Notes: generated from the letters alone by a model not told the origin. Positions 57,409 to 61,374 are shown, counted from the stretch's first letter. The stretch: DNA of 64,000 bases from Candidatus Kaiserbacteria bacterium (GCA_023264445.1 JAHFMN010000003.1:18421-82420), one strand, 5' to 3'. A program made the numbers and translations.

Positions 57409-57986
57409 GGATAATTGGGCAGCGTATCGGGTCGATAGTCGAAATGGAAATACTCACGTTTCGTACCGATACGGAAACCGTTAAGCATCATTAATTTACC
57501 GAGATAGTCTTGTAATTCCTGGCATTGCTGTGACCCTTCGTCTTTTTTATTTTTATAAAAGTCGATGAAGAGCGCTGGTACACCATCTTCGCTACGCCGC
57601 ATATGAATTTCTTTATTTTCTTTGGTATCCCAGATCGCTACGTCTACCGAAAGACCAAGAGCGTGGGGCATTGTATTCATATTTAGGATGGAGTCTGTTA
57701 CTTCTTTACCGTATTTCTCCACGCGCCGCTGGTATACGATTTTGTAGATTTCCTCCGATCGATACCCTTCTTTTATGTATAAACGCCATCCTTTTTCTTG
57801 GAGTTTTTGGTCTATCGCCGCCAGTTTATCAATAATTTGCTTGCTCACCCGAACTCGATCATCTTTAAGGCCAGCTTGCATAATATCCTCCTTAGTAAGG
57901 CCGTGTGTAGCGTATTTATGCCAATAAAAATTGCTACCGAGGAGGCCATAGTCGTCTATATATACGAGGTCGGTAGGCGTGGTCAT
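57405..57986 (-). CDS. M15-family zinc metallopeptidase (VanX/D-Ala-D-Ala dipeptidase or LD-carboxypeptidase-like)
   Basis: HALGLSVD (HxxGxAxD) motif and 193 aa size. GC content clearly lower (about 43-45%) than the flanking ~60%. Confidence 0.6.
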   Translation of the reverse strand: MTTPTDLVYIDDYGLLGSNFYWHKYATHGLTKEDIMQAGLKDDRVRVSKQIIDKLAAIDQKLQEKGWRLYIKEGYRSEEIYKIVYQRRVEKYGKEVTDSILNMNTMPHALGLSVDVAIWDTKENKEIHMRRSEDGVPALFIDFYKNKKDEGSQQCQELQDYLGKLMMLNGFRIGTKREYFHFDYRPDTLPNYP

Positions 57987-59293
57987 AGCTTCCCTACTAT
58001 CGCATTGAACTGGTCGCCGCGATCATACTCGTTCTTGAACATACCAAAGGAGGCGAAGGCGGGAGAAAAGAGAATGGTGTCGCCCAACTCGGCAGAGGAG
58101 AAAGCTTCAGCTATGGCTTTATCAAGAGTATCAAAGACAGAGGCGCCGGGAATAAATTCAAGTACGCGACTCGTACCAGTCCCCGCGAGCAGGATAGTGC
58201 GCTTCACCCCCCCAAGCTTTGCGAGAAGCGCATTCATATCAAGGCCCTTATCTGCGCCGCCCATGATAAGTACCGTTCGCGCTGGGTCGAGTGCCGCGAG
58301 CGCGGCAAGGGTCGCTTCGGGCGTGGTCGCAGTGGTGTCGTTGTAAATTTTGACCCCATTCACTTCCCTCACGAGTTCGAGCCGGCCGGGGACGCCCTTA
58401 AATGATTCAAGCGTCTTACGGCTTATCGAGTCGTCAATATCGAGTGTGCGAGCGACAGCGAGCGCGAGGGCAGCATTGTAGCGGTTATGGAGGCCCGGGA
58501 CACGAAGCGTCCACGTGTCAGGAAGCTTCGTCTCGTCTACCACGAGCGTTTTTGACTCTATCTGCTCTCCGTATCTATCAATGACTGTCGGCGCGCATTG
58601 TTTACCCAAGATGAGTGTGTCTTCTGGCTTCTGGTATAAAAAGATATTCGCCTTGTCAGCAAGATATACGTCAATATCGTTTTTATAATAGTTCAAATGG
58701 TCGGGATACAGTGTTGTGAAGACTGCAATATGCGGACTCATCCTCGCCTCACCGAAGCCCTGGCACTGCCACGAATCCAGCTCGAGAACTGCGACGTGTT
58801 GGGAAGTCGTTTCTGGCAAAAGAGAAAGTGTAGAGACGCCGCGCACATTTCCGCCAAGCAATACCTTCTTCCCTGCCCCTTTCAAGATGGCATGAATCAT
58901 GTGCGCTACGGTTGACTTGCCGCGGGTACCCGTCACGCCGATTATCGGAATCCCAGAAATTTCTGCGAAGAGGTCCGCGCTCATGCGTACCGGTATCTCA
59001 TGCTTCTTTGCCTCCGCGATATAGGGAGAATCAAGCGGCACGCCGGCCGCTTTCAGAATGAGATCGCGATTATTAAAATCTTCCAGCCGGTGCTCGCCAA
59101 GAACGAACGTGATGTTTGTAAACTGTTCAAGCTGGGCAACCGATTCAGCGAGCTCCTCGCGCGACTTCAAGTCAGTCACAATAAGCTCCGCTCCGCACTC
59201 CGCGAGATAAGCGGCATCGCCTACGCCTCGACCCAAAAGGCCGAGTCCCATGATAGTTATCTTTTTGCCCCGAAAATGAGATGAGGCGTCCAT
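57983..59293 (-). CDS. murD: UDP-N-acetylmuramoylalanine--D-glutamate ligase
   Basis: MDASSHFRGKKITIMGLGLLGRGVG...GVTGTRGKST...; start set at 59293 because the longer ORF-track start would overlap tRNA-Ile. Confidence 0.88.
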   Translation of the reverse strand: MDASSHFRGKKITIMGLGLLGRGVGDAAYLAECGAELIVTDLKSREELAESVAQLEQFTNITFVLGEHRLEDFNNRDLILKAAGVPLDSPYIAEAKKHEIPVRMSADLFAEISGIPIIGVTGTRGKSTVAHMIHAILKGAGKKVLLGGNVRGVSTLSLLPETTSQHVAVLELDSWQCQGFGEARMSPHIAVFTTLYPDHLNYYKNDIDVYLADKANIFLYQKPEDTLILGKQCAPTVIDRYGEQIESKTLVVDETKLPDTWTLRVPGLHNRYNAALALAVARTLDIDDSISRKTLESFKGVPGRLELVREVNGVKIYNDTTATTPEATLAALAALDPARTVLIMGGADKGLDMNALLAKLGGVKRTILLAGTGTSRVLEFIPGASVFDTLDKAIAEAFSSAELGDTILFSPAFASFGMFKNEYDRGDQFNAIVGKL

Positions 59294-59298
59294 GTGGG

Positions 59299-59371
59299 TG
59301 CACGCTCTAGGAGTCGAACCTAGGACCGCCCGAGTATCAGTCGGGTGCTCTACCAACTGAGCTAAGCGTGC
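59299..59371 (-). tRNA. tRNA-Ile (anticodon GAT)
   Basis: Manual fold: acceptor GCACGCT/AGCGTGC, D-arm GCTC-AGTTGGTA-GAGC, anticodon arm CCCGA-CTGATAC-TCGGG (GAT), T-arm CTAGG-TTCGACT-CCTAG, discriminator A. CCA not encoded. Confidence 0.9.
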
Positions 59372-59408
59372 ATCTGTGGATATTATCAAAAAACCTCTTT
59401 AGTTTCCA

Positions 59409-59447
59409 CTCAAACAAAAACACCCTTCTCGGGCGTTTTTGTTTGAG
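59409..59447. repeat. 39-nt near-perfect palindrome with flanking A- and T-runs in the 16S-tRNA spacer
   Basis: ctcaaacaaaaac-a-ccc-ttctc-ggg-c-gtttttgtttgag; terminator-like in both orientations. Confidence 0.7.
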
Positions 59448-59452
59448 TTTAA

Positions 59453-59488
59453 GAAAAGATGTGATGCGCTCTTTTGTTCCGCCTATTC
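59453..59488 (-). promoter_or_regulatory. 3' half of the 16S rRNA processing stem (pairs with 61105..61139)
   Basis: gaaaagatgtg...cttttgttccgcctattc is the exact reverse complement of 61105-61122 plus 61129-61139, bracketing the 16S gene. Confidence 0.7.
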
Positions 59489-59639
59489 TGTCTCGCTTGA
59501 GAGCTCATATGTGGCTCTCAAACGACCACCGGATTACGTTCCCCGGCACTCGAGCATCGGTTAGAGACGAATGCTATCTCTCGTGATTCTTTCGAATCAC
59601 ATCGACATGATTTTCCTTTCGGGAAAATCGGTTCCAATT

Positions 59640-61102
59640 TGGATATGTTCCACGAACAGCTTCCGCTACCCGTGCCTTGTTACGACTTAGTCCTTGTCAT
59701 TGAATTTGCCGTAGTACTGCGCAAGGCAGTCCTTCGGGCACCCCCAACTCCCTTGACTTGACGGGCGGTGAGTACAAGACTCGAGAACGTATTCACCCCG
59801 GTTTGGCTGACCCGGGATTACTAGCGATTCCGGCTTCATGAGGTCGATTGCAGACCTCAATCCGTACTGGGGGCGGTTTTATAAGGATTGGCTCCGCCTT
59901 ACGGCATTGCTACCCGTTGTACCGCCCATTGTATTATGCGTGCAGCCCAAGGTATCAGAGGGACATGCTGATCTGGCGTCATCCCCACCTTCCTCTCCCG
60001 TGAGGGAGCAGTCTCGCCTGGCCATATAGGCAACAGACAACGGGGGTTGCGTTCGTTACCCCACTGAAGGGAACAGTTCAAACCACGAACTGACGACGAC
60101 CATGCATCACCTGTCCAGCACCCTCGAAGGCTCCGTCCCTTTCAGGTCGGATGCAGCTGGATTTCTAACCTTGGTAAGGTTCTTCGTTTGTCGACGAATT
60201 AAGCCGCATAATCCACCGCTTGTGCGAGTCCCCGTCTATTCCTTTGAGTTTTAATCTTGCGATCGTACTACCCAGGCGGCTCGCTTACCGCGTTAGCTTA
60301 GTCTCACAGAGGGTCGATACTCCGTAAAACGAGCGAGCAACGTTGAGGGCCAGGACTACCGGGGTATCTAATCCCGTTCGCTACCCTGGCTTTCGTGTTT
60401 GAGCGTCAGGAACGTACCAGTGCATTGCCTTCGCCTTTGGTGTTCCCCATGATATCAACGGATTTCACCCCTCCACCATGAGTTCCATGCACCTCTTACG
60501 CCCTCGAGCCATACCGTTTCCCTCGCCGGCCGTAGGTTAAGCCCACGGATTTTACGAGAGACTAATATGGCCGCCTAGACACCCTTTACGCCCAGTGATT
60601 CCGGGTAATGCTTGGGGCCTCTGTATTACCGCTCCTGCTGGCACAGAGTTAGGAGCCCCTTATTCATCGGGTACCGTCAATAAACTTCGTCCCCGATAAA
60701 AGATGTTTACGTACCAAGGCACTTCATCCATCACGCGGCGTCGCTCCGTCAGACTTTCGTCCATTGCGGAATATTCTCGTCTGCAGCCTCCCGTAGGAGT
60801 ATGGACCGTGTCGCAGTTCCATCGGTGGGGGTCAGCCTCTCAGCTCCCCTAAGCGTCGTAGCCTTGGTAGGCCGTTACCCTACCAACTAGCTGATACTAC
60901 GCAGGCCGCTCCCGAAGCGAAAAACCTTTACCCTTGCGGGACTATCGGGAATTACCCGGTCTTTCGACCGGCTATGCCCGACTTCGGGGGACGTACCTAC
61001 GTGTTACTACCTCGTCTGCCGGTTGCCCTTGCGGGCCCCCTTGACTTGCATGACTTATCCACGCCGCCAGCATTCACCCTGAGCTAGGATCAAACTCTCA
61101 TT
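59640..61102 (-). rRNA. rrs: 16S ribosomal RNA (complete, about 1463 nt)
   Basis: 5' end AGAGTTTGATCCTAGCTCAG; 515 region GTGCCAGCAGGAGCGGTAATAC; 3' AAGTCGTAACAAGGCACGGGTAGCGGAAGCTGTTCGTGGAACATATCC. Helix 45 GGAA loop present. Ends are within about 5 nt. Confidence 0.9.
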
Positions 61103-61104
61103 AA

Positions 61105-61139
61105 GAATAGGCGGAACAAAAGAATTCACACATCTTTTC
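61105..61139 (-). promoter_or_regulatory. 5' half of the 16S rRNA processing stem (leader)
   Basis: Complementary to 59453..59488. An adjacent perfect hairpin gcccggcac-tcgc-gtgccgggc lies at 61141..61162. Confidence 0.7.
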
Positions 61140-61273
61140 TGCCCGGCACTCGCGTGCCGGGCGTTCACGTATGTAATTGTCAAAAAACATTCCGGGAAAC
61201 AAAAAGAACTCCTACGAGTCCGTCTTTGCTTCGACGTCCTGCCTACCTACTCTCTTCAGGTGGCAGTAAACCT

Positions 61274-61302
61274 ATACTATATGAGCCCCCGAGGGGCGTC
61301 AA
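61274..61302 (-). promoter_or_regulatory. Candidate sigma70-type rRNA promoter
   Basis: Minus-strand TTGACG, 17-nt spacer, TAGTAT, about 165 nt upstream of the 16S 5' end and just after an upstream terminator hairpin. Confidence 0.3.
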
Positions 61303-61321
61303 TAGCCTTGCCAGAAACAAG

Positions 61322-61356
61322 AAGCCCACGAGAAGAATGGGCCTTCTCGTGGGCTT
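61322..61356 (-). terminator. Intrinsic terminator of the small membrane-protein gene
   Basis: Perfect 14-bp stem aagcccacgagaag/cttctcgtgggctt with 7-nt loop, followed on the minus strand by CTTGTTTCTGG. Confidence 0.55.
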
Positions 61357-61374
61357 AGGTAGATTCTCTGGGAA

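Follow-up and report, generated by a model that had tools for sequence, protein, structure and literature searches.

The canonical bacterial rrn operon carries, in this order, the genes for 16S, tRNA-Ile(GAT), tRNA-Ala(TGC), 23S and 5S. Co-transcription of tRNAs with mRNAs is found in the Escherichia coli operons thrU-tyrU-glyT-thrT-tufB and metY-rimP-nusA-infB, in which the downstream open reading frame (ORF) has a normal leader and a Shine-Dalgarno (SD) sequence. Brewer et al. ('Unlinked rRNA genes are widespread among Bacteria and Archaea') used a distance of more than 1500 bp between 16S and 23S as the criterion for unlinked rRNA genes, and named the Patescibacteria explicitly as a clade that has them. 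Loss of the anti-SD sequence has been reported for a subgroup of the Parcubacteria (Tsurumaki et al. 2022, PMC9297842), in a paper where leaderless mRNAs are not mentioned (0 occurrences). In the present work we analysed a stretch of 64,000 nucleotides (hereafter the window) from Candidatus Kaiserbacteria bacterium (GCA_023264445.1 JAHFMN010000003.1:18421-82420), a Paceibacteria/Kaiserbacteria-like member of the Patescibacteria. The genes of interest lie on the minus strand, where a 16S rRNA gene is followed by tRNA-Ile(GAT) and, only 5 nt later, by murD. The reading that we favour, with a probability of about 0.62, is that the 16S gene would form a stand-alone unit, that a second promoter (P2) would drive a run starting with tRNA-Ile and murD, and that processing of the tRNA would yield a nearly leaderless murD mRNA. 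The elements of this locus, in the direction of transcription, are the following.

61274..61302, minus strand: P1, promoter-like motif for 16S, TTGACG-N17-TAGTAT (motif scan).
61177..61189, minus strand: boxA-like element TGTTTTTTGACAA in the 16S leader, a possible rRNA antitermination signal (sequence likeness).
61106..61140, minus strand: 5' strand of the 16S processing stem, pairing with 59488..59452.
59638..61105, minus strand: 16S rRNA gene, full-length, bacterial, without insertions (Rfam RF00177, 1352 bits, model positions 1-1533).
59452..59488, minus strand: 3' strand of the 16S processing stem, pairing with 61140..61106.
59408..59448, minus strand: terminator-like hairpin after 16S, right after the processing stem; 18-bp stem whose GC core lies between an A-tract and a T-tract.
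59380..59408, minus strand: P2, promoter-like motif TGGAAA-N17-TAATAT with an upstream TG, ending 8 nt before position +1 of the tRNA (motif scan, conservation).
59299..59371, minus strand: tRNA-Ile(GAT), discriminator A73 at 59299, CCA unencoded (Rfam, 72.9 bits; anticodon called by ARAGORN).
59294..59298, minus strand: junction CCCAC, the 5 nt from the discriminator to the murD start codon (read from the sequence).
57983..59293, minus strand: murD, UDP-N-acetylmuramoyl-L-alanine--D-glutamate ligase, 436 aa (Pfam MurD-like_N, Mur_ligase_M, Mur_ligase_C).

RNA genes were searched with Rfam, over the whole 64 kb, and with ARAGORN, and protein domains were searched with Pfam. For comparison, 80 species-level loci (hereafter the relatives) were fetched through their MurD proteins at 62-83% identity; the window MurD has 82-83% identity to proteins that bear the labels Kaiserbacteria, Paceibacteria, Minisyncoccia or Parcubacteria. 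Many of the relatives' contigs start within 16S, which is the usual break point of short-read assembly.

Both borders of the junction could be fixed. The MurD N-terminus MDASSHFRGKKITVMGLG is kept in about 70 relatives, and therefore the ATG at 59293 is the true murD start; most database homologues have 436-437 aa. A 468-aa ORF starting at a TTG (59389..57983) was rejected as murD, because its additional residues come from in-frame reading of the tRNA and the conserved N-terminus starts only at the ATG. This is of use for annotation, since gene callers stretch murD into the tRNA and so give rise to database entries of 452-488 aa. On the other side, the acceptor stem of tRNA-Ile is a perfect 7-bp helix (GCACGCT/AGCGTGC) in the Rfam register, followed by A73 and then CCCAC, and hence the encoded CCA implied by the 78-nt call of ARAGORN was rejected. 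Of 58 tRNA-Ile genes, 49 do not encode CCA, and the trailer invariably opens with a C; since CCA is not encoded, the 3' end of the tRNA must, on this gene structure, arise by cleavage and CCA addition. Because 5 nt leave no space for a promoter or a terminator, tRNA-Ile and murD must, as far as the sequence tells, share one transcript. No TAnnnT box was found at leaderless distance before the murD ATG of the window, and a murD promoter inside the tRNA gene was rejected, since none of the loci with an abutting tRNA has a TAnnnT box ending 5-9 nt upstream of the murD ATG.

A separate observation on the same tRNA gene was made in loci L018, L038, L042, L043, L048 and L050. Here a complete tRNA-Ile is flanked by partial tRNA-Ile halves, with a 5' fragment upstream and an anticodon/T-arm fragment downstream, a picture reminiscent of an interrupted or nested tRNA gene, or of the scar left by an integrated element.

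The order 16S, tRNA-Ile, murD is family-wide: murD is preceded by a 16S gene on its own strand in 57 of the 80 relatives, and by tRNA-Ile(GAT) in about 70. In most of them (59/80) a prcB-like gene encoding a membrane-anchored protein of 165-205 aa (Pfam PrcB_C) lies between tRNA-Ile and murD, with TATACT placed 6-8 nt before its ATG, and many of these relatives have a terminator directly after the tRNA. In 53 of the 64 non-abutting relatives the murD ATG is preceded, at a distance of exactly 6 or 7 nt, by the end of a -10-type hexamer (TACGAT, TAGGAT or TACCAT, often after TG), a spacing which indicates a putative leaderless mRNA. The ancestral layout of the family would consist of four compact units, namely 16S, tRNA-Ile (often with its own terminator), the prcB-like gene and murD. 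The murD promoter kept by these relatives is lost in the window, and no prcB-like homologue was found in its 64 kb, nor in any locus where the tRNA abuts murD. A deletion of about 0.6 kb in the window lineage would have removed both the prcB-like gene and the murD promoter.

The abutment has occurred elsewhere with other junction sequences. Between A73 and the ATG the window has CCCAC, L001 CATTT, L010 CTCGT, L030 CC, L033 CACGAAATT, L051 CACT and L053 CTGAT. In L080 it is tRNA-Leu(CAG), not tRNA-Ile, that abuts murD, and the prcB-like gene is lacking there too. On a neighbour-joining tree of MurD the abutting loci are scattered, each beside non-abutting sisters, and this scatter points to repeated independent deletions. 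Moreover, other genes start 3-6 nt after tRNA-Ile: a NUDIX hydrolase in L077, L071 and L055, two other ORFs in L013 and L037, and a 95-aa membrane ORF in L113. Altogether, gaps of 2-9 nt between tRNA and start codon were found at 13 loci, made up of the window, 6 further murD loci and 6 others in which a different gene follows the tRNA. No ORF starts 10-24 nt after the tRNA, and all remaining starts lie at 25 nt or more, which is enough space for an own promoter.

These gaps bear on the possibility that tRNA-Ile and murD are co-transcribed and that murD is translated from a precursor that is either unprocessed or processed in another way, for instance through SD-independent initiation at an internal, unstructured start region, their closeness being a by-product of deletion. 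Both neighbours are essential, and viable deletions must stop at their borders; in addition, the internal genes of the window appear to be expressed without SD sequences, and internal initiation independent of SD is known, in other anti-SD-blind bacteria such as Bacteroidia. However, unrelated genes that do not derive from the same deletion, such as the NUDIX gene, also start 3-6 nt after the tRNA, and starts at 10-24 nt are missing although deletions could have stopped there. Internal genes, furthermore, nearly all overlap or abut the preceding ORF (-26 to +8 nt), suggesting coupling rather than free internal initiation. Translation of murD from such a precursor is, on balance, quite improbable.

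Two further elements were observed upstream of the genes that follow the tRNA. In L006, L012, L014 and L016 the murD start codon (GTG in the first three, ATG in L016) lies 3 nt after a long stem (GTTAGAGAC...GTCTCTAAC-GGG-start), which is situated in the 60 nt upstream and replaces the -10 box; it may represent another processing-defined 5' end. Between tRNA-Ile and the prcB-like gene, TTATACCCA is conserved about 30-45 nt 5' of GGTATACT, which contains the -10 box (e.g. L034, L036, L054, L070 and L078). The two halves are mutually complementary and could serve as an operator, or form an RNA stem, at the prcB-like promoter.

The need for a 5'-proximal start codon is suggested by the translation signals. 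The 3' tail of the 16S rRNA reads GGAACAUAUCCAAA at 59651..59638 (minus strand), so that the CCUCC core of the anti-SD is replaced by UAUCC, and the form GGAACAUAUCC(A/G)A is common to the window and about 48 relatives. Only about 6 of 47 genes in the window are preceded by an SD-like tetramer. In most cases the gene overlaps or directly adjoins the one before it (-26 to +8 nt), and a -10 box placed 5-9 nt from the ATG was seen at several genes that open an operon. This suggests that leaderless mRNAs would be widespread and combined with coupling through overlapping start and stop codons; a start codon in this organism apparently depends on one of two things, a 5' end or a stop codon upstream of it. 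Because the 16S rRNA lacks the anti-SD core and the genes lack SD sequences, translation would need an AUG at or near the 5' end. As regards individual sites, -10 hexamers (TAGAAT, TATACT, TAGAGT) end 6-8 nt before the ATG of, for example, the genes at 2995-4887, 32785-34152, 38612-39367 and 53424-55190, and the same arrangement was seen at a small ORF (55460..55240) and at 10790..10750 of L081, a contig that overlaps the window.

Whether the run starting with tRNA-Ile is separate from 16S depends on the spacer between them, which measures 266 nt. The hairpin at 59448..59408 has a predicted energy of -28.4 kcal/mol (z = -7.6), and 0 of 200 shuffled sequences folded as well. A hairpin is present at the same spacer position in 16 out of 16 relatives examined (-15 to -42 kcal/mol), with a wholly diverged sequence. 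Its last base in the window (59408) is the first base of P2. In an alignment of 14 spacers, TGGAA and T..T.TG.TA..ATC of P2 are invariant and the flanks diverge. The strict P2 motif was found 5' of tRNA-Ile in about 40 of 63 loci of the relatives, and the pattern TGGAA[AGT]-N17-TAnnAT has 52 matches in the 1.49 Mb of the relatives' loci, mostly at the site upstream of tRNA-Ile. A relaxed promoter motif has just two matches on both strands of the whole window, which are P1 and P2. The packing of a terminator directly followed by a promoter was also seen after 5S in L081, and around tRNA-Cys and tRNA-Pro in relatives. We infer that the spacer holds a putative 16S terminator followed by P2 as the putative promoter of tRNA-Ile. 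Because the terminator-like hairpin and the conserved P2 separate it from the tRNA, 16S is most likely its own transcription unit.

One long operon has to be considered instead, in which P1 would drive 16S, tRNA-Ile and murD-murC-rsmI, with the hairpin acting as a processing or stability element and P2 being minor or inactive. All the elements lie on the same strand with just 266 nt between 16S and tRNA; the T-run of the hairpin is largely paired with the A-tract, and for this reason termination could be partial; the boxA-like element in the leader could permit read-through from P1; and the strict P2 motif is missing from L033 and from L001 and relatives of its type. Against such an operon stand the invariant core of P2 (TGGAA...TG.TA..AT) amid diverging flanks, almost unique to the tRNA-Ile site, the positional retention of a GC hairpin with a T-run in all 16 relatives despite full sequence turnover, and the terminator-promoter packing elsewhere in the genome, as that after 5S. 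A single operon from P1 to rsmI is thus unlikely, and P2-driven transcription of the tRNA-Ile-murD run is preferred.

Several observations on the spacer stand apart from this question. In the window, TAATAT is followed by 8 nt and then by G1 of tRNA-Ile (59385..59371), and in the relative L085 (120..183) TATAAT is followed by 6 nt and then by G1 of tRNA-Cys; these tRNA genes appear to be transcribed nearly without a 5' leader, which raises the question of how much RNase P is needed. The spacer between 16S and tRNA-Ile is filled in L002 (1949..2638) and L033 (5239..5928), and also in L004, L023, L054 and L070, by a conserved ORF (about 230 aa, HTH_23 domain at the N-terminus) that extends over the first ~10 nt of the tRNA gene and may represent a mobile or homing-endonuclease-like gene. 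One sub-clade has, in place of P2, a conserved and visibly structured stretch of about 100 nt (...CTCGCAATCGTATGGAGTACCATACTGCTTGCTCGTTCG...) immediately before tRNA-Ile (L001 355..464, L011 1874..1983, L016 4871..4980, L037 about 2167..2276). No Rfam match at the gathering threshold was obtained for it in L001, L011 and L016, the three loci scanned.

The 16S unit itself would comprise P1, a leader, an RNase III-type processing stem, the 16S gene and the terminator-like hairpin. Of the 25 relatives whose 16S gene is full, 24 have the motif TTGAC[GTC]-N17-TAnnAT 135-246 nt 5' of it, so that the candidate promoter of the preliminary description (61274..61302), recovered by our scan as P1, has a counterpart in nearly all of them. 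The leader and trailer strands are predicted to form a duplex of -68.1 kcal/mol, and the stem encloses 16S in the classical manner. The element TGTTTTTTGACAA is taken by us to resemble the E. coli boxA TGCTCTTTAACAA, and boxA-like elements of the forms TTTGACAA and TTCGAAAAC are also present in the 16S leaders of relatives. As to the remaining points of that description, the 5 nt between the tRNA and murD proved exact (A73 at 59299, CCCAC, ATG at 59293), and the spacer is present, its length being 266 nt and not 268 nt. Co-transcription of both 16S and tRNA-Ile with the cell-wall genes had been suggested; it would hold for the tRNA and murD, given the 5-nt gap, and probably does not for 16S, which the hairpin and P2 would keep separate.

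Two side observations concern the 16S sequence. The universal 515F primer site in the window (60644..60625, minus strand) reads GTGCCAGCAGGAGCGGTAAT, with CCGCGG changed to GAGCGG, and standard amplicon primers would mismatch this organism at the 515F site. Insertions of 0.1-1 kb were found in the 16S of relatives (L003, L013, L014, L022, L033, L034, L039, L044 and L070) and in the 23S of L113, L118 and L133, at several positions (e.g. after query positions ~295, 463 and 1337). Some of them have LAGLIDADG-like ORFs or matches to group I or group II introns; the window 16S has none.

The 16S and the tRNA are exactly the two RNA genes detected in the window at the Rfam threshold. Neither 23S, 5S nor tRNA-Ala was found in the 64 kb by Rfam and ARAGORN, 59.6 kb of which lie downstream of 16S and hold no 23S; in the ~5 kb beyond window position 1 (L083) an Rfam scan found no 23S or 5S, and only protein genes, including murB, are present there. 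The missing genes were located upstream. Contig L081 (11,250 bp, from another assembly and the same ENA sample as L084, ENA ERZ27279942) overlaps the window at 61017..64000 with 100% identity (2,984 nt) and runs 8.3 kb further. Its far end carries, according to Rfam, a 5S gene and the last ~250 nt of a 23S gene cut by the contig end, both on the 16S strand. The distance from 23S-5S to the 5' end of 16S is 10,722 nt, so that the order in the direction of transcription is 23S-5S, 10,722 nt, 16S, tRNA-Ile, murD. About 11 protein genes, three of them on the opposite strand, occupy this interval: a membrane protein, FtsW/RodA, a GT4 glycosyltransferase, Bac_transf, an epimerase, FolD, SecD, SecF, a kinase, a cytidylyltransferase and a 95-aa membrane protein. 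The last of these and its terminator directly precede P1.

61662..61375, minus strand: gene of the 95-aa membrane protein, its 3' end marked by a terminator-like hairpin.
61322..61356, minus strand: intrinsic-terminator-like hairpin of that gene, directly before P1; 15-bp stem with a T-rich tail.

A second set of metagenome contigs was obtained with the FtsW gene as probe. In 19 related metagenome contigs the end of 23S and/or 5S is followed, 8.0-12.2 kb on and on the same strand, by the start of 16S, and in L113, taken from a 693-kb contig, 23S-5S and 16S-tRNA-Ile are contiguous. No tRNA-Ala was found beside 23S within the available flanks, which include 7 loci with complete 23S-5S units, some of them with group I introns. 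This indicates that the rRNA genes are unlinked by the criterion of Brewer et al. and that the trait is clade-conserved. The tRNA-Ile(GAT) gene would be the only remnant of the classical 16S-23S spacer.

A chimeric join in or beside the conserved 16S or tRNA sequences was weighed against this evidence. Short-read contigs do break in 16S, and L081 and L084 themselves start there, at window positions 61017 and 59768. Nevertheless L084, retrieved by exact-protein look-up, is identical (100%) to window 59768..53983 and thus covers the 16S end, the spacer, the tRNA and murD, and L001 and L010 share the junction formed by the tRNA, 5 nt and murD. On the other side, the cytidylyltransferase-like and amino-acid-kinase-family genes 5' of 16S keep their synteny in at least 16 relatives whose contig includes a complete 16S; given this two-sided synteny, the join across 16S is therefore sound, and L113 carries the whole 23S-5S to 16S-tRNA-Ile region without interruption. 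An assembly artefact can practically be discarded. Hence the preliminary description was right that 16S and tRNA-Ile(GAT) run into murD with no tRNA-Ala, 23S or 5S between, and its suggestion of an unlinked rrn organisation is borne out by the 23S-5S about 10.7 kb upstream on the same strand, in a layout conserved in relatives. The misassembly at 59290-59400 about which it had cautioned was not found. The arrangement is less unusual than it supposed, since the gene order is family-wide and unlinked rRNA genes, documented for the Patescibacteria, are already known in kind and ordinary in that group.

Downstream of the tRNA, murD heads a tightly packed run of four genes, after which a new promoter is predicted.

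57405..57986, minus strand: VanY/M15-like peptidase gene, 193 aa (Pfam VanY, E = 7.6e-5, below the curated cut-off).
56140..57408, minus strand: murC, with a 4-nt start/stop overlap with the VanY/M15-like gene (Pfam Mur_ligase, Mur_ligase_M, Mur_ligase_C).
55473..56138, minus strand: rsmI-like methyltransferase gene, the last of the run (Pfam TP_methylase, 2.5e-34).
55495..55467, minus strand: new leaderless-type promoter after the rsmI-like gene (motif scan).

The start of the VanY/M15-like gene overlaps the murD stop by 4 nt, and 1 nt separates murC from the rsmI-like gene. The idea that the VanY-like gene is the relocated gene that intervenes between tRNA and murD in relatives was rejected, because the two have no similarity and the intervening gene encodes a PrcB_C protein. 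The dcw-like genes had been reported to continue after murD; this applies only to murD, the VanY/M15-like gene, murC and rsmI (59293..55473), and beyond the promoter at 55495..55467 come a small membrane ORF, a gene resembling a coupling protein of type IV secretion systems (T4SS) and a long glycosyltransferase cluster. The T4SS-like gene (53424..55190, minus strand) encodes a TrwB/TraG-type ATPase with a long low-complexity C-terminal tail, and it is followed, at 52032..53417 (minus strand), by a gene for a secreted repeat-containing protein with a C-terminal membrane anchor.

Taken together, the favoured model proposes the following steps. Transcription of the tRNA would start from a promoter joined to the terminator before it and leave hardly any 5' leader, and murD, the M15-like gene, murC and rsmI would now depend on P2, with possible read-through from P1. 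An RNase Z-type endonucleolytic cut, predicted to fall next to A73, would free the tRNA and, along with it, a 5'-monophosphorylated murD mRNA whose leader measures 5 nt or less, and this mRNA would be translated like a leaderless one. In transcriptome studies, leaders shorter than 10 nt are classed as leaderless. The leaderless-like translation of the processed mRNA, suggested by the position of the start codon, is the least secure step. A wider proposal, that in anti-SD-less Paceibacteria tRNA excision would be a regular and repeatedly evolved alternative to the leaderless promoter for obtaining a 5'-proximal AUG, is put forward tentatively, its chances being somewhat short of even.

The points that weigh against this model include, besides the possible partial termination, the possible read-through from P1 and the loci without a strict P2, the following. 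A leader of 2-9 nt is not equal to a true leaderless mRNA, and leaderless initiation in E. coli, which tolerates a 5'-phosphate, is weakened by a few added 5' nucleotides. The figure of at least 7 independent origins of the abutment is rough, as the lineages counted are related and the MurD tree was built by neighbour-joining only. A crude binomial comparison with the ORF-start density of the same loci gave 13 short gaps observed and 0.4 expected (P ~2e-16), a rough value that ignores kinship. The gene starts in the window-wide survey of SD sequences and -10 boxes were called crudely. The literature was also searched: nothing specific was found on bacterial tRNA punctuation, on leaderless mRNAs in the candidate phyla radiation or on RNase Z in Patescibacteria, nor was any description found of tRNA-adjacent start codons or leaderless usage in the Patescibacteria group.

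When the locus is compared with known systems, it belongs to the class of unlinked rRNA genes of Brewer et al., exemplified by Patescibacteria, Deinococcus-Thermus, Rickettsiales, Helicobacter and Dehalococcoidia, with which it shares a 16S-23S distance above 1500 bp, the absence of a single operon and conservation within the clade. Its exact layout was not found described in the literature searched: 23S-5S lie 8-12 kb upstream on the same strand, tRNA-Ile follows 16S with its own promoter-like motif, and there is no adjacent tRNA-Ala. What is added to the unlinked rRNA finding is thus a precise map, 23S-5S, ~10 kb of protein genes and 16S-tRNA-Ile.

With the canonical rrn operon the locus has in common a promoter, a boxA-like leader, a leader/trailer processing stem and the presence of tRNA-Ile(GAT) after 16S; it differs in that no tRNA-Ala or 23S follows tRNA-Ile, in the hairpin and P2-like motif of the spacer, and in the protein operon that comes next. 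The E. coli tRNA-mRNA operons are alike in that tRNA genes head a unit running into protein genes and the tRNA is cut from the co-transcript, a cut that is presumed here. They differ in their leaders, whereas in the window there are 5 nt to the ATG, neither SD nor anti-SD, and a tRNA in the place of the leaderless promoter. The leaderless-rich bacteria (Actinobacteria, Deinococcus-Thermus) and the anti-SD-less Parcubacteria resemble this locus in the -10 box 6-8 nt before the ATG, the lack of SD sequences and the 16S tail without CCUCC.

The tRNA-murD junction therefore appears, on comparative anatomy, to be a variation on known mechanisms, and a link between anti-SD loss and tRNA-adjacent start codons is inferred. 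It suggests three expression devices after the loss of the SD: leaderless promoters, coupling by overlapping start and stop codons, and possibly tRNA processing that exposes a start codon. The last of these recalls the tRNA punctuation of mitochondria (the Ojala/Montoya/Attardi model), in which, as proposed for the window, the 5' end of the mRNA is set by tRNA excision, the start codon lies within a few nucleotides and there is no SD. Unlike the mitochondrial case, the window comes from a free-living or epibiotic bacterium with ordinary promoters and terminators, in which only some genes would be affected. If confirmed, the junction would provide a testable bacterial parallel to mitochondrial mRNA maturation.

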